DNA of 25,387 nucleotides, from IMG/VR virus record IMGVR_UViG_3300049205_000073, positions 1-25,387 of that record; one strand, given 5' to 3'. The stretch is from a virus. Lineage: Duplodnaviria > Caudoviricetes. The notes under the pieces were generated by a model. It did no database searches, was not told the origin of the DNA, and saw only the letters and a list, made by a program, of their open reading frames with translations. The position numbers and the translations under genes were made by a program. The first letter of the stretch is position 1. Each line of letters starts with the position of its first letter. Of this stretch, positions 769 to 23,289 are shown piece by piece.

Positions 769-1287
769 TCAGGTTGAATGCGCTACGTCGTGGCTGCCGA
801 CTCGGATGCGTGCCGTGAGATTCAGCAGATCCGAATTGGCCAGGGTGACGCCCATGCCGTTGACGCGGTTGGCGAGCAGCGCCGTTGCGAGCGACGACGT
901 ACCGATCGTGATGCCGGCAGAATCCAGCGCCACGCTCGTGATGCCGTCGGCAGACCCGCCCCACGTTGCCGTGAGGAAGATCCACTCGCGCGACTGGGCA
1001 GACGCGCCGAGCCCGATGGAAGCCTTGCGGCCCACCTCGCCCAGCGACGACTGCGAGTCCGTCAGCGCGGGAGCCGCCGTGGCTGTCCCGATGGCCAGCG
1101 CGTTGAACACGCCAGCCGCCGAGTTCACGGCGCAACTCGCTATACGGTTCAACCCCGGCACCGTCACCGTGTTGATCAGTCGCTTGCGTTCGACCTTGCC
1201 GTCCCATCGCGTCACCGTGACTTCCCATTCACCGTAGACGGGAATGGCGTCGCCCATCGGGATCGTGTCAGAGATATTCCGATTCAT
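769..1287 (-). CDS. Putative virion structural protein (Ser/Thr/Ala/Gly-rich)
   Basis: NTVTVPGLNRIA...ALAIGTATAAPALTD resembles motifs common in phage structural proteins; lies in the late operon; SD GAGGAGG upstream. Start could instead be the ATG at 1257. Confidence 0.6.
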   Translation of the reverse strand: MNRNISDTIPMGDAIPVYGEWEVTVTRWDGKVERKRLINTVTVPGLNRIASCAVNSAAGVFNALAIGTATAAPALTDSQSSLGEVGRKASIGLGASAQSREWIFLTATWGGSADGITSVALDSAGITIGTSSLATALLANRVNGMGVTLANSDLLNLTARIRVGSHDVAHST

Positions 1288-4200
1288 AATGTTTCGTTGC
1301 CTCCTCTTGCAGGCGGGTAAGTAGTTTCTGGAAATGCGCTCGAGAGTAGAACCTGCCTTCCACGGTCAGGTCCACCTTGAGGTCCGGGGCTTCTTCCTTA
1401 GCAATCTTCATCGACGTATACGCGTCGAACCCCACGCCCAAGACCGACACGCACACGGAGTAGTACTTCATGGCGTCGACGATCATGCGTACAGGCTCGT
1501 TCTCGAGCAGCTTCTCGAACAGCTCGATGCCGCGCTTGGCTCTGGCCGGATGGTCCTCCAGCGTGCCGCCCACTTGCTCCTGCTCGAACACGATGCCCTG
1601 CGCCAAGTCTCGGAGCAGCAAGAAGTTGTTGAGCTTGCGATTCGGATATTTCTCCACATCCTTGAACACGAGGGGCAGGTTGCGATGGTAGCGCTCACGC
1701 CGGGTCTTCTCGTCCACGTATCCGCAGTGTAAGAACTGCACGTCGTGACGGATGGTGGCGTGCTTGATTGCCGCGCCCGGCGCTGTCTCCGGATGCTCGT
1801 GGACCAATCCGTAGAACTTGATCCCGCGATTGTTGCGGAACAAGCGGCATGGGAAGTCGGTCGTGAGCACGCCAGCAGGGGCCACCGAGTAGTGGATCTG
1901 CGGGAAGCCGACAGCCGGCAGCATCGATGGTCGCAGATACTGCCACAGATTCCACGGCTGCTGAATCTCCTCGTCCGCGTCGACCCACAGAATCCAGTCG
2001 CCGGATGCGCCTTCGATGCTGCGGTTGCGCGCTGCGTCGAAGCCATCCTTAAGCGCTTCGAGCCCGTACTCGTAGATCACCGGCTTGAGCGGGTAGTCTT
2101 TGGCGATCTGCGCGCAGATCTCATGCGTACGGTCCTTCGTCGACGGGTCGATCATGATGATGACCTCGTCCACATATTCGATGAAAGACTCGATGCAGCG
2201 CTTGAGAGTACGCTCACCATTGCGCACGATGAGGCACGCGGACACGGTCTCACGCGGCATCAGCTCGTACAGCTTACGCTTCATGTCGACACGCCCAAGC
2301 CCGTTGCGCTCGGGCTGCACGGACCATACCCACGAGCCTAGCGTCTGTCCGGTCTCGTCGTGTGACGCCGGTGCGTACAGGATCTGGCTCGGGTTGCCGT
2401 TGCAGATCTCGACGACGTCCTGGCGATCGAAGTGTACGAGGTGCTCACGCCCGGTCTTGAAGGCTGTGTGTCCCGTCCATTCCCAGCGCCCGACTGGTGT
2501 GGTGATGACGAGCGTACCATCGACGTTCAACACTCCGGTGAACTTCTGCAGCAGCTCGTTGTAATTGATCACGTGCTCCAGCACTTCGCCTGCGAGCACT
2601 GCGTCAAACAACTTGCGCGCTGGCTGCTGCCCGGCCTCCATCGCTTGGATGTCGAGCACGTTGGGCTTGGATAGTGGGCACAGAAAGTCCAGCGAGATAT
2701 CGTCTTCCGTGCCGACGATGAAGCTCACGTTATCGAGCCCTTCCTGTTGCGCCCACTTTACGGCGGCGGCGATGGCTCGTGCGCTCACATCCATGCCGAC
2801 GAACTGCACGTGCGGGAAGCGCTTGGCCAGCGGAATGATGTAGTGCCCGTGTGCGCACCCGTAGTCCAGCACGCGCATGTCCGGGCGCGTGAGGAGCTGC
2901 GCCATCATCGAGTCGACGCCCTTGAACCGCGTGGACCCCGTGACGTCCTCGCCGATCACCCTGTCTTCGAAGTTGTCGTAGTACTCGCCCTGATGGTGAG
3001 CGTAGTGTTCCTTGTACTTCTCGATGGACTCGGTGAACTCGTAGAGCTTACGCTCACGTCCGAGCACGTAGTCCCCGATATTGTCGCCACCCATCTCTTT
3101 GCCGCGACCGAGAGGTTGCAGCACAGAGATGTCGCTGAACTCCATGGCATAGCGCGCGACGGATCCTGGCGACTTCGGCGTGTTGAACTGCTTGTAGATA
3201 TGCTGCTCGAGGGTGTCTACAGCGTAGCCCCAGTTCTTCGTGCGCGATGCCTTGCGCTGGTCGACAGCCAGCTTTTCCAACTTCGCCGCGTTAAGGTGCA
3301 CGATGTTGTTCACGTACTCTTCGAGGCACACTGTGCCGTCGGTGTTCAACCCGATGAATACGACGCCGGCGTTCTGCAGCGTTTCGGGCAGTGCGCCGAC
3401 AGGTGACGTCATGATTGGTAGCCCGGCATGCGTCGCTTCCATCGCGGTGATGCACGACACTTCCTTGAACGTGGTCGGGTAGACCAGGAGGTCGCACTGC
3501 TTCTGCACGATGGCCAGCTGCTGCTTCGTGAGCGCACCGAGATTTGTCACGTTGGGCAAGCGCGCTGCCCACGCGTCCAGCTGCGCATAGTAGCCGCGCA
3601 TCTGTGGCACGGTGTTCTCATATCCGCAGTAGACTAGATGCGCCAGCGGCCGACTGATGAGCAGCTTCTCCATGATGCCGCCCGGCTTCAAGAGATTTTC
3701 CAGCCCGCGCTCCGGACGCGACTGATACAACATGAGCAGCTTGTCGTCATGCTGCAAGAATACGTCCGCGAGCTTCTGGCCCAGCAGGTCGTCAGCCTTG
3801 TCGCTCGAAGCGTCGAGGTAGAGCTGCTGGTCGACGCCGTTCGGCACGACCTTCACGAAGTTCGGGTCGAAGCCGTAGACCTCGCACACTTGCTTCTTAT
3901 GGTAGTCGCTCACGACCGTGACGAAGTTCATCTGCCACGTGCCGTGATTCGCGACGCCCGCCGTGCGATACAGTGCCAAGTCGTGCAGCTGCCAGATGCA
4001 GATCTTCGAAGCGAAGCGCTTGTGGAACGCCAGCGGATGACGTTGCACAATCAGCACGTCGTGCGGGGTGAAGCGTGCCCAGTACTCGAAGCGCTCTCCA
4101 AGTGGGTACTGTTGATTGACGTTGCCGACGTTCTGGTACGTGACGCCGTCCCAGATTCCCGGCTTGTCGGTGTTGTTCCAGATCGTAACGCGATGACCAC

Positions 4201-4315
4201 GCGCGGCAAGTTCGCGAGCCTGATAGTAGGCTGCACTCTCGCTGCCGCCGAGCGACTGCTTCGCAATCGTCTCACCGTTGAAGGGCATGCCCATCGCATG
4301 AATGGCGATATCCAT
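1268..4315 (-). CDS. Multidomain glycosyltransferase: GT4 (GT-B) + class I SAM methyltransferase + GT2 (GT-A)
   Basis: GT4: LGGSESA, YQSRPERGLE, EVSCITAME (Ex7E). MTase: VLDYGCAHG, GEVLEHV, LVITTP. GT2: SACLIVRN, FDAARN, WVDADE, GLVHEHP. Start moved from the TTG at 4339 to the ATG at 4315 because of a GGAG SD. Confidence 0.9.
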   Translation of the reverse strand: MDIAIHAMGMPFNGETIAKQSLGGSESAAYYQARELAARGHRVTIWNNTDKPGIWDGVTYQNVGNVNQQYPLGERFEYWARFTPHDVLIVQRHPLAFHKRFASKICIWQLHDLALYRTAGVANHGTWQMNFVTVVSDYHKKQVCEVYGFDPNFVKVVPNGVDQQLYLDASSDKADDLLGQKLADVFLQHDDKLLMLYQSRPERGLENLLKPGGIMEKLLISRPLAHLVYCGYENTVPQMRGYYAQLDAWAARLPNVTNLGALTKQQLAIVQKQCDLLVYPTTFKEVSCITAMEATHAGLPIMTSPVGALPETLQNAGVVFIGLNTDGTVCLEEYVNNIVHLNAAKLEKLAVDQRKASRTKNWGYAVDTLEQHIYKQFNTPKSPGSVARYAMEFSDISVLQPLGRGKEMGGDNIGDYVLGRERKLYEFTESIEKYKEHYAHHQGEYYDNFEDRVIGEDVTGSTRFKGVDSMMAQLLTRPDMRVLDYGCAHGHYIIPLAKRFPHVQFVGMDVSARAIAAAVKWAQQEGLDNVSFIVGTEDDISLDFLCPLSKPNVLDIQAMEAGQQPARKLFDAVLAGEVLEHVINYNELLQKFTGVLNVDGTLVITTPVGRWEWTGHTAFKTGREHLVHFDRQDVVEICNGNPSQILYAPASHDETGQTLGSWVWSVQPERNGLGRVDMKRKLYELMPRETVSACLIVRNGERTLKRCIESFIEYVDEVIIMIDPSTKDRTHEICAQIAKDYPLKPVIYEYGLEALKDGFDAARNRSIEGASGDWILWVDADEEIQQPWNLWQYLRPSMLPAVGFPQIHYSVAPAGVLTTDFPCRLFRNNRGIKFYGLVHEHPETAPGAAIKHATIRHDVQFLHCGYVDEKTRRERYHRNLPLVFKDVEKYPNRKLNNFLLLRDLAQGIVFEQEQVGGTLEDHPARAKRGIELFEKLLENEPVRMIVDAMKYYSVCVSVLGVGFDAYTSMKIAKEEAPDLKVDLTVEGRFYSRAHFQKLLTRLQEEATKHYESEYL

Positions 4316-4341
4316 TTGAAGTTCTCCGATGTTACTCAAGG

Positions 4342-6913: not shown

Positions 6914-7203
6914 CAGCCTGCCTCGCTTCGAGTTTCGATTGATTCACTGGCCACGACCGTGATGACACGACTGCCATCGCCGCTCACGGCCTCGTCCTTC
7001 TGTACGCCGCTCGCCTTGCCAAGCTCCTCGGCCATTACGCCGGAGCGCGTGAGCAATGCCAGCAGCCACGACACCTCGCTCAACGGCACGAGCTTCGCCG
7101 ATCCCATGGCTAGCCAGTTGCGTGCGCGCTTGAGAGCTTGCTCAACGATCATCTTGTCGTTGTGCTTCTTCGTCTGCGACGCGACGAGATCACGGAGCAT
7201 CAT
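6913..7203 (-). CDS. Hypothetical protein (head module)
   Basis: Fills the gap exactly, with 1-nt stop/start overlaps with both neighbours. Confidence 0.65.
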   Translation of the reverse strand: MMLRDLVASQTKKHNDKMIVEQALKRARNWLAMGSAKLVPLSEVSWLLALLTRSGVMAEELGKASGVQKDEAVSGDGSRVITVVASESIETRSEAG

Positions 7204-9710
7204 TACGCAAACCCCTTCTGTGCTTCCACTGTGGGAGGATCATCCTCCTGACCATCCCAGCCGTCGACAGCCGTAATAGCGATGAGTATCGAGCGACAGT
7301 TGAAGTGGTTCGGCGGTCGATACTCGTTCCAGACCGGGGAGTCGGCAGCGTACGTCTTGCCGTTGAGATGCTCACAGATGTCCGTGGTCGAGGAGTCGAG
7401 TACTGCGGCGTATTCGAAAGCAACAACGAAACCAGCCATGTCGGGATCGGTGAACGCATCGTACCGTGCCTCGTTCAATGCTTCGAACGTGTTAGTGCGC
7501 ACGAGTGTATTGAGATACGACGGCACCGATTCCTCGTCGATCCAAAGCTCGTTAAGCGCCTTCTCCACAGCCTCGTCGGTTTCCATGCCTCGCGCTGCGT
7601 CCCTCGAAGTGAGGCCTCGCGCGACGAGGCGATCCCAGATTGTCGCGCGCACCTCGCTTGCGGGCTTGCCGTACTTGATACCATTCTGCAACTCCTGCTG
7701 AATGATACGCCGAGAGTTGTCGGTGATATCTTCAGCCATGCGATGGCCTCTTGCTTCGAAGAAGCCAGCCGCTTTGTCTTTCAACGAAGCCGCCACGATC
7801 CTGCGAGCTCCGGCCTTCGTGCTGTCGAGCGAATTGAGCTCACTCATTGCCGTGCTCGTGCCGAGGTCATACGACTGGCGTAGGAGCATCTTGATTTCAT
7901 CACGTATGCGCGCGGTGTCCAAGCTGCTGAATTCCAGCGCTGCGACATCTGCTTGGTTCTCGTCGAGCAGCGCGGACATCACGTCGTTGTCGCCGAGCAT
8001 GCGCGACGTGCCGCGCGCGATGAGGTTGGCAAGGTGCCCAACGCTGTAGCGCGACACGTCGTCGGTGCGGCGCTCGATGACGCTGAAGTGCACGCGGCTC
8101 GCAGCGCTTTGGAACTGCAGCATCGTCGCCGTGCGCAGCTCGCCGTGCGGAACAGCATCGTCCGGAACCGTCCCTGAACCGGTCGCCTCCGGTGCCGGTG
8201 CCTGACCACGCACTGGCCCTCCGGACGATGCTGCATGCTGGCCGAATATCGAAATGAGCATGGGCAGCACTTTCGCAGATACGATCTCTGCGATGCCCTC
8301 TGCCACCGTCGCGTCGAGCTTCTTGTCGCCGACCGTCGGTTTCTTCTCCGGAGCAGGAGGCAGCGATGCGCCCTTGCCTCCAGGAGTCTGCAGCGGTTTG
8401 CCGTCTGGCCCGAGGCCCACGGGGTCCGGCGCGAGCTTCTGCTTGACCTGTGCAAGTAGCTCGTCGCCCTCTTCGCGCGACGGCATGTTGAGCAGCTCGC
8501 GAAGGAACGCCTCGTCCTTCTCAGTCGGCAGCACCGCTTCTGCGCCGATCATGTCCTTCCAGGTCGTGATGACCCACTTGACATGCTCTTGACTCGCGGG
8601 CTTGAAGGCGAAGACAGGATACTTGCCATCACCCCAGTTCTGATCGCCCAGGTCTCGGAAGAGCTGCTCGTTCACACACTCCGCGACACGGCACGCGTCG
8701 CTGCCGAGCGTCCAGAAGAAGACTTCGAGCTGCGTCTGCGACTGGGCGTACGCGCCTGTTTGACCAGTATGGCTAAGGCCCAAGAGGTTCGGAACGAGGC
8801 GGCTCTTTGCGATCGCGAGATCACAAAACGCGATTGCCTTTTCAAATGCGTCTCCTGATCCCGAGGTCGGGAACACCATTTCCATCTCCACGCCAGGAGG
8901 CAGGATGATGGCGCTGAGTGACTTGATGTTGCGGAGCGCGAGCTCCAGCGACTGGTACTCGGGAGTGTTGGGCTTCGGCGCTGCATCCGTTACTCGCGAG
9001 GCTTTGGCGAATCCGCCAGCCATGCGCTCGGTGAACAAGAGCCAGAGCTTCAGGAGCTGCTCCTTCGCATACCACCAACGATACGCGGCGCGTAGATCGC
9101 TGCGCCCGTACACTACGTCCCACATGGGCTTGTGCACGTAGTGAATCATGCGGTCCATCTCGATGACGACCTCACGACCGCCGGCGCTCAGCTCCTGCTT
9201 GACCTGCTGCAGCTCACCGTACTCATCGGTCCAGAAGCGGAAGGTCACAGGGTCGCGGGTCAGCAGCTTGTTGATACCGACCTGCGACTTACCGTCGACC
9301 TCGATGGTGCCGTAGACCTTCTCGGTCATCGAGAACCCGTACTCTGCGCCGATGGCGATGCCCTCGATGCCGTCGCTGAAGGAGCCCTTGAGCTTCTTGC
9401 AGACACTCTCGAAAACCTTGATGCGAGCCTTTTGCTCCTCCTCGCTGAGGGACGTATCGCCCTTCTCATACGTGAAATGCCAACCTCGGCTCAGCATGGC
9501 GTCGCGCTTGAACTGCGACACTGCCTTGACCTGCTCATCGTTGAGCATGCGCGCGTAGATGCGCAGGCCCTTCATGCCGACGAGGTCATCGGGGTTGTAG
9601 CGCTCGCCACGCCCGACGGTACTGAACAAGTCAGTCGTGTCGAACGTCGTGATCTGGTCCTGCGGCTGCTTCGCGAACGGAGTGTTCAGCGGTTGAACGT
9701 TTGAGGTCAC
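7203..9710 (-). CDS. Portal protein (DUF935/Mu gp29-like) fused to a Mu gpF-like head morphogenesis domain
   Basis: Follows TerL. YGRSDLRAAYRWWYAKE, W.LFTERMAG and GAYAQSQTQ are portal-like. A Pro/Gly linker precedes the C-terminal RTNTFEALNEAR..AVLDSSTTDICEHLNG..PPNHFNCRS (gpF). Confidence 0.85.
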   Translation of the reverse strand: MTSNVQPLNTPFAKQPQDQITTFDTTDLFSTVGRGERYNPDDLVGMKGLRIYARMLNDEQVKAVSQFKRDAMLSRGWHFTYEKGDTSLSEEEQKARIKVFESVCKKLKGSFSDGIEGIAIGAEYGFSMTEKVYGTIEVDGKSQVGINKLLTRDPVTFRFWTDEYGELQQVKQELSAGGREVVIEMDRMIHYVHKPMWDVVYGRSDLRAAYRWWYAKEQLLKLWLLFTERMAGGFAKASRVTDAAPKPNTPEYQSLELALRNIKSLSAIILPPGVEMEMVFPTSGSGDAFEKAIAFCDLAIAKSRLVPNLLGLSHTGQTGAYAQSQTQLEVFFWTLGSDACRVAECVNEQLFRDLGDQNWGDGKYPVFAFKPASQEHVKWVITTWKDMIGAEAVLPTEKDEAFLRELLNMPSREEGDELLAQVKQKLAPDPVGLGPDGKPLQTPGGKGASLPPAPEKKPTVGDKKLDATVAEGIAEIVSAKVLPMLISIFGQHAASSGGPVRGQAPAPEATGSGTVPDDAVPHGELRTATMLQFQSAASRVHFSVIERRTDDVSRYSVGHLANLIARGTSRMLGDNDVMSALLDENQADVAALEFSSLDTARIRDEIKMLLRQSYDLGTSTAMSELNSLDSTKAGARRIVAASLKDKAAGFFEARGHRMAEDITDNSRRIIQQELQNGIKYGKPASEVRATIWDRLVARGLTSRDAARGMETDEAVEKALNELWIDEESVPSYLNTLVRTNTFEALNEARYDAFTDPDMAGFVVAFEYAAVLDSSTTDICEHLNGKTYAADSPVWNEYRPPNHFNCRSILIAITAVDGWDGQEDDPPTVEAQKGFA

Positions 9711-13761: not shown

Positions 13762-15828
13762 ATGAAAAAGTCGAAAGATCGTAGCAGCGGGAAACGGAAG
13801 TCAAAGGATCATGATGGGCTCATGGAGACGGCGCTTGAAGACCTCAAGCGATCCGGGCTCACGAGCAGGGACTTCGAGAAGCTGGGCCTGGAGCTTCTCA
13901 CTGCCGATGAAACAGATGACTACGTGGGCGAAGCGCGATCCTCCTATAGGATCCCGTACTTCGACCTGCACGGGAAGAAGATCTCGTACTCACGAGTGAG
14001 GTTTCTCGAAACGAAGAAGGGGAAGTTCTCGACTTCCACCGGATCCTTCAGGTACTCACAGCCGGCCAACTCTGCGCCGCACGCCTACTTCCCTCCGTAT
14101 CTGAAGTGGGACAAGATCGCCAAGGACGTGAGCGAGACCATACTCATCACGGAAGGCGAGAAGAAAGCGGCGCTCGCGGCGAAGGAGGGCATTGCATGCT
14201 TGGCCCTCGGTGGAGTCTACGCCTTCAAGAGTACGAAGCGGCTTTGGGATCTCATCCCCGAGCTGCAGCAGATCCAGTGGAAAGGACGCAAGGTCGAGAT
14301 CTGCTTCGACGCCGATGTGATGTGGAAGGCCGAAGTGCGGAACGCGTTGAGCATGCTCGCGTTCACGCTCATGCAGGAGCAAGGGCCGGAGGATATCAGC
14401 TTCGTGTTTCTAGATGCGGAGACAGCTGGCCCCAAGACCGGTCTGGATGACTTCATAAAAGCGAACGGAGTCGACGCGTTCCTCAAGCTGGAACGGCAGA
14501 GCTACATGGCCAGCGAGAAAGTGCAGATCCTCAACAGCAGGGTCTGCTACGTCGAGAACCAGATGCGGTTCTTCGATATACGAGTGGGGAAGTACTACAA
14601 GAACCTATTCCACGTTCGTGAGTCCTTCATGGGCCTCGGTGAGGCGATGGTCGACGGCAAGAAGACCATACCGATCGTGGACGTGTGGGCCAAGAGCGCG
14701 ACCCGCCGCAGCGTGCGGGACGTTGTGTATCAACCCGGTCAGCCCGAGATGATCGACGATCAGGACCTCAACATATGGCAACCTCCAAAGATACAGCCCA
14801 AGAAGGGCACGCCGAAGATGTGGCTCGACTTGTTATTCCACATCATGCGGGAGACCGAGCATGCACAGTGGTTCTTAAAGTGGTTGGCCTACCCTATCCA
14901 AAATCCTGGCGCGAAGTTGTTCCAGGCACCCTTCGTGTACTCGTCTATGCAGGGCACGGGCAAGACTTTCATCGTCGACCCTATTATGGAGTTGATATAC
15001 GGCTCGACGAATTTCTACCGTTTGTCGAACAAGGGGCTTGGCTCGAGTTTCAACGGGTATGCATCCAAACGGCAGTTCGTGGTTACGAACGAGGTCTTCC
15101 TTCCAGACTATCGGGACCGACGCGATGCGATGGGCATGCTGAAGGATATCATCACTCGGGAGACTGTTACGATCAATGAGAAGTTCCAGCCGGAGGTGGA
15201 GTACATCGACTGCTGTAACTACTACTTCACGTCCAACCATGCGGACGCGCTGGCTCTAGAGCCCAACGATCGCCGCTTCTTCGTGATTGAGGGGCCGAAC
15301 GAGCGGCTGAGCAAGTCCACATACGTGGCGATGGACGAGTGGGTACGTAGCGCCGGCGGCGCGGCGCAGATCCTGCACTATCTGCAGAACAACGTAGACG
15401 TGAAGGACTTCGTGCCGAAGGGCGACGCGCCGATGACCAAGTGGAAGAAGCAGATCATCGAGATGACACGGGATCCGCTGGGCGAGTACACCGAACGATT
15501 AATCGAAGACCCGGATCGCATCTTCATGGTCAACGGCGCGAAGCCGGACTTGAGCTTGTTCCGTGCCGAGGATCTGCTGAAGACCTTCGAGCACACGTAC
15601 CCCAAGTACTACATCAACGTGACGGTCAAGCGCTTGGCCGGGATGCTCGCGTCGGACCGACGCATTGAGAGGCGGCGCGTGCGACTGACCGAGGACTCGC
15701 CGCTGATCACGCTCTACGCCATCTTCGACCGCGACAAGTGGAAGGACGCACGGAACAAGGAATGGGCGCAGCATTACGTTGGCCTGTCGAAGCAGTTTGC
15801 GAAGTACCGTCGAGAGAAGTCACACTAG
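13762..15828 (+). CDS. DNA primase (Toprim, DUF3854-like) fused to SF3 helicase (D5/DUF5906-like)
   Basis: ILITEGEKKA, ICFDAD, KTGLDDFI (Toprim); QGTGKT Walker A, VVTNEV Walker B, FTSNH motif C, DRRFFV. Start placed at ATG 13762 rather than 13483. Confidence 0.9.
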   Translation: MKKSKDRSSGKRKSKDHDGLMETALEDLKRSGLTSRDFEKLGLELLTADETDDYVGEARSSYRIPYFDLHGKKISYSRVRFLETKKGKFSTSTGSFRYSQPANSAPHAYFPPYLKWDKIAKDVSETILITEGEKKAALAAKEGIACLALGGVYAFKSTKRLWDLIPELQQIQWKGRKVEICFDADVMWKAEVRNALSMLAFTLMQEQGPEDISFVFLDAETAGPKTGLDDFIKANGVDAFLKLERQSYMASEKVQILNSRVCYVENQMRFFDIRVGKYYKNLFHVRESFMGLGEAMVDGKKTIPIVDVWAKSATRRSVRDVVYQPGQPEMIDDQDLNIWQPPKIQPKKGTPKMWLDLLFHIMRETEHAQWFLKWLAYPIQNPGAKLFQAPFVYSSMQGTGKTFIVDPIMELIYGSTNFYRLSNKGLGSSFNGYASKRQFVVTNEVFLPDYRDRRDAMGMLKDIITRETVTINEKFQPEVEYIDCCNYYFTSNHADALALEPNDRRFFVIEGPNERLSKSTYVAMDEWVRSAGGAAQILHYLQNNVDVKDFVPKGDAPMTKWKKQIIEMTRDPLGEYTERLIEDPDRIFMVNGAKPDLSLFRAEDLLKTFEHTYPKYYINVTVKRLAGMLASDRRIERRRVRLTEDSPLITLYAIFDRDKWKDARNKEWAQHYVGLSKQFAKYRREKSH

Positions 15829-16439: not shown

Positions 16440-16458
16440 CTGCTCACTTTTTGAGCAG
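16440..16458. promoter_or_regulatory. Inverted repeat CTGCTCA-N5-TGAGCAG (operator-like)
   Basis: Perfect 7-bp arms; the TGCTCA half-site is also repeated at 12990-13078. Confidence 0.45.
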
Positions 16459-16515
16459 CGATTTCAGGCATCTGTAAGTTATTGTTTCGCAACGCAATTG
16501 GGTGCATAGCTGCCG

Positions 16516-16545
16516 TTGCAACGCGCCTAGTTGCGCAGGCATAAT
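16516..16545 (+). promoter_or_regulatory. Sigma70-like promoter
   Basis: TTGCAA-N18-CATAAT followed by AT-rich ATATAT. Confidence 0.6.
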
Positions 16546-16551
16546 ATATAT

Positions 16552-17066
16552 GTGTTGGAGACCGGGCCGCTGCAGCGGTACCGCCGGGAGCCGGGCAGGT
16601 AAGCCCAAGCCACGCTAGGTAGCGCCTAGCAGCCCTGCTGACAAGCGGGGCGCATGCGGTCAAGCAAAACACGTTTTGGTGACGTGGGCCATATACAGCA
16701 CCGATTAATGCACGCAGCTACAACCTGCGCGCGCCCAGCTGCCGGGCAAGGCAGTACAACGCAAGCTGCAACTAGCAGCGCACAGCAAACGGGCACACAC
16801 GCCGCAAGGCACGTTTAAAGCCCGCGCTAACACACACGCCGCAAGGCACGTTTAAAGTTAGGCCAGTAATGTGCGCCCAGCGAAAGCAGCAGGCTACATA
16901 GCAACGTGCGGCGGGCGAGAAAACCGCAGCTAGCAACAAACGCACGTTGTAGCGTTACAGCCCGGTTGTGTGAACCGGGCATGTAGCGCAGAGCGCATTC
17001 AATTCCGAGTGCGCTCTGTTCTGCATAGGTCGACAGTACACACACTAGGCTAAGGAAGATACAAGC
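16552..17066 (+). ncRNA. Candidate large structured ncRNA or long structured leader (~500 nt)
   Basis: No credible ORF; more than ten hairpins in series, G-U pairs, GCAA/GAAA tetraloops, duplicated motif with covarying stems. Confidence 0.55.
16794..16857 (+). repeat. 27-bp perfect direct repeat x2 (CACACACGCCGCAAGGCACGTTTAAAG), period 37
   Basis: Copies at 16794-16820 and 16831-16857. Confidence 0.95.
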
Positions 17067-17351
17067 ATGAACACTTTAGTAGCACCGTCGTTCGTCGCGT
17101 CGACGATCGACAGGATCCACGACCTTGTCGACGAATCGATGTTCCACAGCAAAGTGGACCGCACGCCAACGCGCTACGCCAACGAGCTGGCGACCAAAGC
17201 GTTGGGCCACATCGTCCTTAACGGCTCCGTTCCGACGGACGAGGAGCTGCGAGCGCTCGTCATGGCCGATTACGAAGCGATCCCGCTTTTGGGAGAGCGC
17301 GACGGGTTCACGGATCTCGACTACGCCATCCAGCTGATGGTCGTGCCATGA
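17067..17351 (+). CDS. Hypothetical protein
   Basis: SD TAAGGA; ATGA overlap with the next gene. Confidence 0.7.
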   Translation: MNTLVAPSFVASTIDRIHDLVDESMFHSKVDRTPTRYANELATKALGHIVLNGSVPTDEELRALVMADYEAIPLLGERDGFTDLDYAIQLMVVP

Positions 17352-17536: not shown

Positions 17537-17832
17537 GGATGCGCTAACCAGCTGCGCATCGGCACTGAACTCGAAAGCGCCAGCGAGGGCGTCATCGAAA
17601 TACTCGCGACCAGCAGAGGAGGACTCGCCATGCGTCCGCAGCGTTGAAAAGCGTTGCACTCTGCGCACTACCGAATTCCCACTCCCACCCAGCGGGACTT
17701 AGTGCGCAGACTGGAACGATCTTCGAAGGCAGCAGTTTAGTAGCGAGGGTCTGCTGCGCATCGTGAGGTGCGGCACAAAACTCTTGCATAGATTTACAAC
17801 CCAACCGATCTAACATGCCCATAGGAGACTTT
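17537..17832 (+). ncRNA. Candidate structured intergenic RNA element
   Basis: Hairpins with GAAA and GUGA tetraloops, an 11-bp stem 17660-17670/17700-17710 and a possible pseudoknot. Confidence 0.4.
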
Positions 17833-19044
17833 ATGGCCATCGGTAGCAGAACTCGCGGTGTCAACCGCAATGTATCCAAGGTAGAGAACGCAGACTTCAT
17901 CACGATGCCGCGCTGGCAACAGCGCGTCCTCGCCGAATGGATGGGATGCTTTCATGCGTGTGAGGAGACGAAGACGAAGGAGGCGTACGGGCAGGTACTT
18001 AAAGAGAAGTGCCTTGCAAACCTGCCGCGCGCCCAAATCGGCTACGAGATCATCATCCTGAAGCAGGAGCCGGCCGTCGCCGACGGCACGATGCCTGCAG
18101 ATCTCGAGAAGAAGATGTACGCCACGCTGACAAGCGTTATCAGTCAGCACGCCGACGCGCTGGGCGAGAAGGCGTTCAAAGCTGTCGACTCTTGCGTCGA
18201 GGCGATGAAGAAGCAGCTCGAAGCCTTCGCGAAGGAACAGGTGCGCGAAGCCGCTGAGAAGCGCGCGCCCATTACGGTCAGGTCGAAAGGTAAGACCAAG
18301 GTAGTCAAGGGCGTTCTGCCTCCAGAGTTCAAGCAAATGGTCGAGCTGGCCAGTGCCCGCGTTCCGATTCTGCTCGTCGGCCCTGCCGGTTGCGGCAAGA
18401 CGTTCTTGTGCGAGAAGCTCGCGGAGGCGCTGGACCTCGACTACGCCGACCAGTCGTGCAGCGAGGGCATGAGCGAGGCCGTTTTCAATGGCCGGCTGTT
18501 GCCCATCGGCGGTCGCGGCGAGTTCAAGCATGTGATGTCGCCGTTCCAGCAGCGTTACGAAAAAGGCGGCGTGTTCCTGCTCGACGAGATGGATGCTGGC
18601 GATCCTAACTTGTTCACGTACGCCAACAAGGCTATTGCGAACACGTCGTACACTTGCGAGCAGCGGTACGAGAAGCCTGTGTTGAAGAAGCACGAGGACT
18701 TCGTGCTGGTGGCTGCAGCCAACACGTTCGGCAACGGTGCGGACGCCATGTACGTCGGCCGCAACCAGCTGGACGCTGCAACGCTGGACCGGTTTAAAGT
18801 TGGCCTCATCACGATGGACTACAATCGCGACGTCGAAGCGAGCATCGCGACGCCTGAACTTTGCGAGTGGGCGTGGTCGGTGCGCGGCGCGATCTATGCG
18901 AAGAAGATTCGCCGCATCATGTCGACACGCGTGATCAAGGACCTCGCCACTATGACCGAGATGTACGGCTGGGGCAAGGAAGAGTGGAAGGGCGCGTTCT
19001 TTAAAGGCTGGACTGCAGCAGAGGTAGCACTGTGCAACAACTAA
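17833..19044 (+). CDS. MoxR/CobS/CbbQ-type AAA+ ATPase
   Basis: GPAGCGKT, FLLDEMD, AANT, LDAATLDRF; start set at ATG 17833 (AGGAG SD). Confidence 0.9.
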   Translation: MAIGSRTRGVNRNVSKVENADFITMPRWQQRVLAEWMGCFHACEETKTKEAYGQVLKEKCLANLPRAQIGYEIIILKQEPAVADGTMPADLEKKMYATLTSVISQHADALGEKAFKAVDSCVEAMKKQLEAFAKEQVREAAEKRAPITVRSKGKTKVVKGVLPPEFKQMVELASARVPILLVGPAGCGKTFLCEKLAEALDLDYADQSCSEGMSEAVFNGRLLPIGGRGEFKHVMSPFQQRYEKGGVFLLDEMDAGDPNLFTYANKAIANTSYTCEQRYEKPVLKKHEDFVLVAAANTFGNGADAMYVGRNQLDAATLDRFKVGLITMDYNRDVEASIATPELCEWAWSVRGAIYAKKIRRIMSTRVIKDLATMTEMYGWGKEEWKGAFFKGWTAAEVALCNN

Positions 19045-20494: not shown

Positions 20495-21348
20495 CCGACC
20501 TGGACTTCAAAGTGATGCTCGCCAAGACGTACGACCCCAAGCGTGTCCAGAACTGGAAGGAGGTTTGGGTCGAGCCGAAGCTGGATGGCGTGCGCGTCAT
20601 TGCGATGGTGAGTCGCAGTGGTCCGGTGCGGTACTACAGCCGCAATGGTCGAGAGCTTGGTATGTTCACGCACCTGGACGGGAGCTTGCGCAAGCTGCGT
20701 ATGCGTTTGCCGGCGACGGCGACGACGGTGTTCGACTGCGAAGCTGTCGGCATGACGTTCGGCGACGTGAGCGGGGCCATACACACGAAAGGCACAGTTG
20801 CCTTGACGTGCCGCTTGCACGTGTTCCACTACATGCCGCTACGAGCCTTCGAGCTTGGGCTCGACACGACGTCGCAGTTCGATCGCAACGATGACCTGCA
20901 GGTCGCGCTGAAGGCCGAGGCGATCAAGGGCCTCACAGTGTCCAAGCCCGCTCGAGTCTTTGACCATCGTCAGGTGTTGTACGCGCACGACCAGTACCGT
21001 GCGGCAGGCAAGGAAGGCACCATGGTCAAGAACTTGCAGAGCGCGTGGACGGCAACGCGTAGCTGGGCATGGATGAAGATCAAGGACGAGCAGACGACCG
21101 AAGTCATTGTGACCGGCATCAAGGAAGGCACTGGCAAGTACGCTGGCAATACAGGCGCGCTGATCTGTGAGCACAACGGGCGCGTCGTGCGCTGCTCCGG
21201 CATGAGCGATGAACAACGGCGCAAGTTTTGGGACAAGCCCAAGAGCATCATCGGCAAGATGATCGAAGTAACTTACCAGGAAGAAACGGAGGCAGGCTCG
21301 CTGCGACACATTCGATTCAAACGAGTTCGGGATGACAAACAGGAGTGA
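20491..21348 (+). CDS. lig: ATP-dependent DNA ligase (minimal adenylation + OB fold)
   Basis: EPKLDGVR (KxDG), [42 protein letters not shown]; ATG 20491 with AGGAG SD. Confidence 0.93.
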
Positions 21349-21350
21349 CC

Positions 21351-21533
21351 ATGTTGATTCTGACCAGACGGGTGGGAGAGACCATCATGATCGGCGACGA
21401 CATCATAGTCACGGTGCGCGAGATCCAAGGCAACAATGTTCGCCTTGGCATTAGCGCTCCGAAGGAAGTGCCGGTGCATCGCGAAGAGGTGTACCGCCGT
21501 AACAAGCTGCAGGAAAAGGCGGTGCGCACATGA
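21351..21533 (+). CDS. csrA: Carbon storage regulator CsrA/RsmA homolog
   Basis: [22 protein letters not shown]...[19 protein letters not shown], near-canonical CsrA. Confidence 0.96.
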
Positions 21534-21799: not shown

Positions 21800-22173
21800 A
21801 GACCCTCGGCAAGCAGATCGACAGCTTATACACACTCGACGCCGAGATCAAAGCGCAGAACAAGGTCCTGAAGGATCTCAAGTCCAGGCGCTACAAGCTG
21901 GAAACGAAGTTGCTCAAGGACTTCGAGAAGAGCGACATCGACGGCTGCAAGGGTCAGCGCGGTGTAGCAAGAACCCGAAAGGCGACGTTCTACAACATCA
22001 AGGACCGTCGCAAGTTCGAGAAGTACGTGCTGAAGCACAAGGCGCTGGATCTGTTCCAGAATCGCCTCAGCGCAGAGGCATTGAAGGCGCGGCGAGACGA
22101 AGGCGAGCACGTTCCTGGCGTCGGGTCGTTCGACCGCACAAGCATAACCGTAACCAAGCGAGGAGCAAGGTAA
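21796..22173 (+). CDS. Conserved phage replication-module protein (basic, coiled-coil N-terminus)
   Basis: [12 protein letters not shown]...LDLFQNRLS...VPGV pattern of small proteins that precede SSB/PolA in siphoviruses; ATGA overlap at 21796. Confidence 0.7.
   Translation: MKTLGKQIDSLYTLDAEIKAQNKVLKDLKSRRYKLETKLLKDFEKSDIDGCKGQRGVARTRKATFYNIKDRRKFEKYVLKHKALDLFQNRLSAEALKARRDEGEHVPGVGSFDRTSITVTKRGAR

Positions 22174-23289
<1,116 letters not shown>

Follow-up and report, generated by a model that had tools for sequence, protein, structure and literature searches.

A conserved two-helix head and a modular body in a candidate family of large structured RNAs from tailed phages

A stretch of about 500 nt without a gene lies between two small plus-strand ORFs of a tailed phage, approximately 0.7 kb 3' of the primase gene, and raises the question of whether it encodes a structured RNA and what such an RNA might do. 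The DNA analysed (the window) is a 25-kb virus record of 25,387 nucleotides, whose minus strand encodes a terminase, a Mu-type portal, a protease and a capsid protein, and whose plus strand carries the primase-helicase gene, small ORFs and genes for an AAA ATPase, a DNA ligase and CsrA. The upstream primase-helicase gene (13762–15828, plus strand), containing DUF3854 and DUF5906 domains, was used as the query for relatives. The original prediction, made from the sequence, had placed an ORF-free and densely base-paired RNA of an undescribed type at 16552–17066, behind a promoter. A sigma70-type promoter, TTGCAA-18-CATAAT, was predicted at 16516–16545 on the plus strand; it is conserved in relatives and gives an inferred transcript start near 16552; a promoter scan found this one site against 0.4 expected. 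Upstream of the promoter are an inverted repeat, TGCTCA-N5-TGAGCA (16441–16457), which is likely to be an operator or an origin iteron, and an IHF-like site (16475–16487, plus strand) that matches 8 of the 9 defined consensus positions and lies 82 nt 5' of the conserved head described below. The inverted repeat is present just 5' of the promoter in one copy in the window, two in G001 and three in G002. IHF-like matches at 7–9 of 9 positions were found 77–105 nt upstream in seven of nine family members, each being the best match to the consensus within 450 nt and taken without a shuffle control. On the 3' side, the first small early ORF (17067–17351, plus strand) has its own ribosome-binding site and encodes a different gene in every relative read; the ORFs further downstream likewise have a ribosome-binding site each and differ between phages. 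The predicted extent of the RNA held as far as approximately 17026, but the remainder up to 17066 is spacer and the next ribosome-binding site. The stretch is ORF-free in substance: it has a 54-codon ATG frame (16654–16818), but nothing equivalent was seen in any of the six other full-length RNAs examined, and no conserved ORF or tmRNA-like tag was found in it.

The folding of the stretch was examined as RNA and as DNA. All seven stems listed originally are complementary at their positions, but in the predicted ensemble of 16552–17030 five were supported and two were not. Pairing probabilities of 0.87–1.0 were obtained for the stems at 16614–16630, 16902–16949 and 16960–16980 and for the inner 11 pairs of 16988–17019, and about 0.63 for the stem at 16593–16606, while the stems at 16632–16651 (0.02) and 16778–16784/16870–16876 (0.01) both compete with longer-range helices. 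The plus-strand RNA folded better than its shuffles, as had been expected, with a z-score of -3.51 and 1 of 100 shuffles as good; the minus-strand RNA gave -1.73, and the two strands folded as DNA gave -2.2 and -2.5. In a local test using 12 shuffles for each piece the element had a z-score of -5.3, but two of 12 coding pieces from the window reached -5.2 and -3.8, so that the folding score alone does not mark out the stretch. The 27-nt tandem motif reported originally was recovered exactly, at 16794–16820 and 16831–16857.

Homologues were collected by scanning with 5' patterns, by widening the primase search and by applying a covariance model built on the head, which together gave nine members: the window, L019, L020, L066, L143, L146/L152, L154, L159/L033 and L326. 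L019 and L020 have primases 78–82% identical to that of the window and share its promoter, first 35–50 nt and 3' stems, with a diverged middle. The eight members used for training the covariance model scored 55–71 bits and chance matches at most 39.9 bits; L326, which was outside the training set, scored 23 bits (E 2.8e-4 in one 60-kb record) and contains a full head. The full-length members (n = 7) measure 465–638 nt from the head to the next ribosome-binding region. Pattern scans returned mostly chance matches, with true members at 3 of 28, 4 of 30 and 2 of 89 viral loci and at 6 of 29 metagenome loci; chance matches were dropped where the inner stem or the promoter was missing. None of 35 pattern-matched loci in bacterial genomes was a member, and a scan anchored on hairpin P2 of the head alone gave no member with a different 5' end. 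Among cultured phages and plasmids, the window matched only chance pieces of 38–39 nt in coding genes and two of its relatives gave no match. The closest cultured primases, from PW916 and AXL3, are 32–33% identical, and both phages are without the head. Use of the tandem motif as a search pattern gave ten viral loci, none of them homologous.

Comparison with the Rfam 15 covariance models, among them those for ROOL, GOLLD, OLE, tmRNA, RNase P, introns, riboswitches and CsrB/Rsm RNAs, gave no match at the gathering score in the window, nor did ARAGORN call anything there, consistent with the earlier view that the stretch is not a tRNA, tmRNA, intron or riboswitch; between 16400 and 17850 Rfam returned only noise (E 3.8–9.6). 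Ten loci of relatives likewise gave no Rfam matches, and in five loci searched at E ≤ 0.05 only the hammerhead was found. No tRNA or tmRNA gene was called by ARAGORN in the window or in any of 11 related loci. A link to retrons, DRT or DGR was sought through reverse transcriptases, of which none was present among the 34 window ORFs; RVT_1 was absent from all five records examined for it, four of which are 40–72% complete.

The part shared by all nine distinct phages is a two-helix head of the form GGAGA-P1-P2, made up of the first 50 or so bases. Helix P1 (16557–16588, plus strand), the most conserved element of the RNA, was missing from the original list of stems, although P2 (16593–16606, plus strand) had been included. 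In the window P1 begins with an unpaired GGAGA (16557–16561), which is followed by an invariant stem (16562–16565/16584–16587), a G-U pair (16566/16579), a covarying stem (16567–16570/16575–16578) and a 4-nt bulge (16580–16583). The same order is kept across the members, with GGAGA, a CCGG/CCGG invariant stem, the G-U pair (G-A in L066), an inner stem of variable length, a 3' bulge of 4–5 nt with the sequence ACMG and, 3–7 nt later, the hairpin P2. GGA opens the head in all nine members. GGAGA is also the usual ribosome-binding motif of the window phage, and no start codon follows the 5' GGAGA of the head. The sequence GGAGACCGGG is present in all five members that were reached via neighbouring proteins (the window, L019, L020, L066 and L326); the other four were found by patterns demanding the invariant letters, so that their invariance is by selection, and the five are invariant as well.

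Compensatory change, which the original prediction had proposed as a check together with a search for homologues, was found in the 5' head and in the 3' domain. All three pairs of the inner stem covary: pairing is kept in every one of the 27 cells, and each pair has had both of its bases replaced in one phage or more. For the whole head 6 of 11 pairs were changed on both sides in an alignment fitted to the covariance model; its covariation score was reached by none of 500 shuffles, and all slid controls were lower. An unfitted alignment of eight members gave 5 of 11, again with none of 500 shuffles. Values of this kind can also arise from relatedness, and no signal comes from the invariant stem of P1. 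P2 is paired in 69% of cases because automatic alignments misregister it in three to four rows, and its stem flips from GGGC/GCCC to GCCC/GGGC in L146.

The head is found close to a probable 5' end. A -10-like hexamer lies 11–27 nt 5' of the head in seven of the nine members as measured by script, and 26 nt 5' of it in L326 as judged by reading. In the ninth member, L159/L033, the promoter-region motif is followed by a 78-codon ORF, a type I hammerhead motif and then the head. This motif scored 25.8 bits in Rfam (E 0.013), below the 34-bit cut-off, and its predicted cut would leave 9 nt before the head. The hexamer in eight members and the hammerhead motif in the ninth suggest that the head is kept near the 5' end by two means. 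Hammerhead motifs are known to punctuate phage polycistronic transcripts (PMC3088659). Similarly, in L020 and L146/L152 the small variable genes downstream have such motifs beside them, and one abuts the L159 head. The difference is that the unit released here would be a large non-coding RNA and not an mRNA. Hammerhead core motifs among the early genes were observed at L020:12497–12550, at two minus-strand sites of L146/L152 and at L159:3036–3087 (minus strand), three being type II and one type I and all below the Rfam gathering scores; the window itself has no hammerhead motif.

Behind the head is a variable, hairpin-rich body with A-rich linkers (16614–16899 in the window, plus strand), in which 43% of the unpaired bases are A and whose exact fold is not fixed by the data. 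The body is 400–570 nt long in the members, modular and poorly conserved; across six full-length distant members it was not alignable, with a mean column identity of 45%, and no motif of at least 7 nt was common to all full-length members outside the head. The tandem motif (16794–16857, plus strand) is a 27-nt unit, a GCAA hairpin with UUUAAA behind it, present in two exact copies. Single occurrences of a hairpin with UUUAAA or UGUAAA were seen in L019, L020, L159 and L061, making five of the 12 RNAs searched. Neither a long-range pairing nor a pseudoknot was seen to be conserved, the folding model being one without pseudoknots. Between L019 and L020, 17 of 141 predicted pairs were changed on both sides, and several G-C to G-U changes suit the plus strand as RNA.

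The body is followed by a 3' domain of long adjacent stems (16901–17026, plus strand), which is conserved, with compensatory changes, in L019 and L020. The three close relatives have in common a pair of neighbouring stems in this domain, and both bases were changed at 8 of their 45 pairs. A predicted helix of 13–26 pairs was present within the last 130 nt of all 11 full-length RNAs folded, a count made without a shuffle control. In L146 and L154 the better fold is that of the minus strand. From these predicted stems, the 3' domain is likely to act as a processing or exonuclease boundary. A long imperfect hairpin resembling the 3' stem of the RNA was observed at 17646–17724 of the window, in a second gene-free gap among the small early ORFs, and is a possible further processing site.

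The promoter profile also matched L056 (itself in the profile), L060, L058, L061 and, weakly, L105, where by eye 540–615 nt of hairpin-rich sequence precede the next gene; folding z-scores were -2.5 to -8.4 for three of these RNAs and -4.1 for L056. The conserved head was not found behind this promoter type in these five records. L061 shares a body block of 59 nt with L066 (86% identity, E 1e-14) and one of 28 nt with L159 (89%). Since headless relatives share body blocks with head-bearing members, the unit is built of modules, and those at the 5' end are exchangeable. Another conserved 5' module, 81% identical over 196 nt and without an Rfam match, was seen at L056:8070–8610 and L060:9015–9560; it is probably a sister RNA family. 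A third module, starting with GGACAC, was seen at L058:13950–14500 and L061:10262–10815, with body blocks common with L066, L159 and L105. At L105:11270–11345 a 26-pair 3' stem surrounds a three-arm junction with a tRNA-like T arm, which was not called by ARAGORN and could be a tRNA-mimic processing signal.

Part of the body, at 16707–16887, was matched by contigs from two metatranscriptome runs belonging to two studies. X1 covers 16707–16887 (181 nt) and X2 16708–16861 (154 nt), both with no differences. These contigs show presence in RNA libraries and not strand, ends or level, and may derive from DNA. In each run 5 of 30 bins had any depth, with short pieces in the bins 18090–18519, 21100–21529 and 21960–22389 and the flanking genes almost uncovered; this contrast was not counted as an expression level because the runs were chosen by this stretch and consist of contigs only. 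The shared contig start at 16707/16708 is at most a weak hint.

Taken together, the stretch is very probably a functional structured RNA. The proposal of an undescribed large structured phage RNA was borne out by the homologues, the compensatory changes, the absence of an Rfam family, the hammerhead motif and the RNA-library pieces. A description of this RNA was not found in the literature searched. The head motif and two contig identifiers were also absent from seven supplementary files of the largest screen of viral structured RNAs (PMC10690425), two large alignment files being outside this comparison. The RNA represents a family new among the large structured RNAs already known from phages, set apart by its design of a head on a modular body. 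Few such phage RNAs have been described and none has an established function (PMC12286853). The present family differs in design from these in its small conserved head, its exchangeable body and its first place in the early transcript.

The favoured reading, plausible but tentative when its whole chain is considered, is that of a processed and stable non-coding RNA of about 475 nt, made at the start of the early transcript and carrying a protein-docking head for which a CsrA-type dimer is the leading candidate. Host sigma70 polymerase, helped by IHF, would transcribe the RNA first, early in infection, and the 3' end would be set at the long stems, either by a nuclease that cuts double strands (RNase III, for example) or by a barrier to 3' exonucleases. 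A CsrA dimer would then span the P2 loop and the GGA left unpaired at the 5' end and keep RNase E away from that end, much as it does on flhDC mRNA; thus protected, the RNA could accumulate and serve as a stable scaffold or decoy. The motif bound by CsrA is GGA, preferably in the loop of a hairpin; the dimer bridges two sites, and CsrA protects the flhDC mRNA 5' end from RNase E (PMC7652899). Like the flhDC and glgC leaders and CsrB, the RNA has one or two GGA near the 5' end, one of them often in a loop (a GGA-containing P2 loop is present in six of nine members), and the genome encodes CsrA. It differs from these targets in having no start codon after GGAGA, too few GGA and, in the window, a loop without GGA.

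The csrA gene of the window (21351–21533, plus strand), whose product is the candidate partner of the head, lies 4.3 kb downstream on the same strand, and csrA was found in four of the six head-bearing virus records (G000, G001, G004 and G048) and not in the fragments G002 and G003, a count restricted to virus records that leaves out three members on short metagenome contigs. Among records related by primase or ATPase but without the head, csrA was present in one of 78 and in none of the 25 that are at least 90% complete. The co-occurrence of csrA and head gave a Fisher p of 4e-5 and extends to three of four lineages; a shared host type could explain it. Genes resembling csrA are already known from phages (PMC7546807 and annotations). 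No convincing head was found in nine cultured csrA-bearing phages, one of which gave a 15.6-bit match, nor in G037. The window CsrA is typical (88 bits), the proteins of G004 and G048 are divergent from it, and that of G048 scored 26.5 bits against a 27-bit cut-off. As the csrA genes lie 4–18 kb from the RNA and their products diverge, RNA and protein do not form one cassette. The P2 loops of two csrA-bearing phages are AGGUAA (window) and AAGAU (L159), neither with GGA, so that the phages most expected to have the second CsrA site lack it; the second GGA of the window RNA overlaps the end of P1. Predicted folds of the window capsid and protease leaders contained no clear hairpins with GGA loops. 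CsrA is the best-supported candidate for docking. A broader version, rather unlikely as a whole, supposes a family of large phage RNAs built from modules, whose 5' heads are interchangeable; the present head and phage CsrA would form a dedicated ribonucleoprotein, made first in infection and released by RNase III-type stems or hammerheads, that rewires translation or decoys host RNA-sensing defence.

The same head could instead act in cis on transcription. An antiterminator like put of phage HK022, in which the head would bind the transcribing host polymerase to allow read-through of the long early operon and the body would keep Rho off, is possible if somewhat doubtful. The put element is about 70 nt long, consists of two stem-loops, is placed just after PL or 270 nt after PR and acts tether-free (PMC9378689). 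The likeness is one of size and place, namely two stem-loops in approximately 60–70 nt directly after an early phage sigma70 promoter. The head is also always placed before a run of small variable genes, punctuated by hammerhead motifs in L020 and L146/L152, and its invariant bulged helix suits a conserved host surface. The further 400–570 nt of structure in the body is left unexplained, however, and no intrinsic-terminator-like site was seen on the plus strand between 16300 and 25387, Rho sites being invisible to such a scan; the five related records with other 5' modules behind the same promoter type also argue against this alternative. Confirmation of either proposal would be new, as a phage RNA-CsrA complex or as a put-like antiterminator outside the lambdoid phages, and since the genomes also encode a candidate partner and natural variants exist (hammerhead-released, or with other heads), the function of the head is directly testable in E. 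coli.

R-loop or primer RNAs are known from ColE1 RNA II and T4 origins. A replication or terminus element, acting as such an RNA or as single-stranded DNA hairpins at an origin or genome end, is an unlikely explanation here. It would fit the primase or helicase gene just upstream in the window, L019, L020, L152 and L159/L033, together with the repeated palindromes and the IHF-like site 5' of the promoter. The contigs of L033, L066 and L143 also end 137–156 nt past the head start, and X1 and X2 begin 150 nt past it. Seven members, however, have one contig running through this break zone, the plus-strand RNA fold is favoured over either DNA strand, and a hammerhead motif beside the head makes sense only in RNA. 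The phage moreover has its own primase, and the neighbour in L143 is a divergent small terminase gene.

A protein-free fold that self-assembles through palindromes (CCGG in P1, the UUUAAA linkers), as in ROOL or GOLLD, is quite unlikely. ROOL and GOLLD are phage-encoded, helix-dense non-coding RNAs of 500–800 nt, and in OLE and GOLLD loops with palindromic sequences make contacts (PMC12286853). The present RNA shares the large size, phage origin and helix density, GOLLD too has one conserved end and one variable part, and a hairpin with UUUAAA or UGUAAA recurs in five of the 12 RNAs searched. In contrast to ROOL and GOLLD, the window RNA has no Rfam match and no tRNA island nearby and heads the early operon, with conservation across the family limited to the 50-nt 5' head. 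The unalignable body, and the fact that no conserved long-range contact was found, also speak against this fold.

A CsrB/RsmZ-type sponge titrating CsrA with many GGA loops is highly improbable in spite of the nearby phage csrA, as GGA is depleted in the window RNA (2 in 474 nt, where base composition would give 11) and in L019, L020 and L159 (3–5 against 10–17), and L146 and L326, with 16 and 17, are only at expectation; for the window RNA a multi-site decoy of the CsrB type is excluded by this count. A neutral GC-rich spacer with chance hairpins is equally hard to credit, since the similar folding scores of window coding pieces are outweighed by a covarying head at a fixed promoter distance in nine phages of different gene context.

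Several further features were observed in these records. A single 835-aa frame of the window (7203–9710, minus strand) fuses a Mu-type portal to a Mu F-like head morphogenesis domain. At 1268–4339 on the same strand a 1023-aa protein combines two glycosyltransferase domains with a methyltransferase, adjoins the capsid gene and has a radical SAM gene nearby; this region is a possible virion or DNA modification module. A 371-aa protein with very long Asp/Glu tracts (22174–23289, plus strand) is perhaps a single-strand DNA-binding or nucleic-acid-mimic protein. In G003 the primase match (1948–3945, minus strand) is interrupted by one internal TGA.
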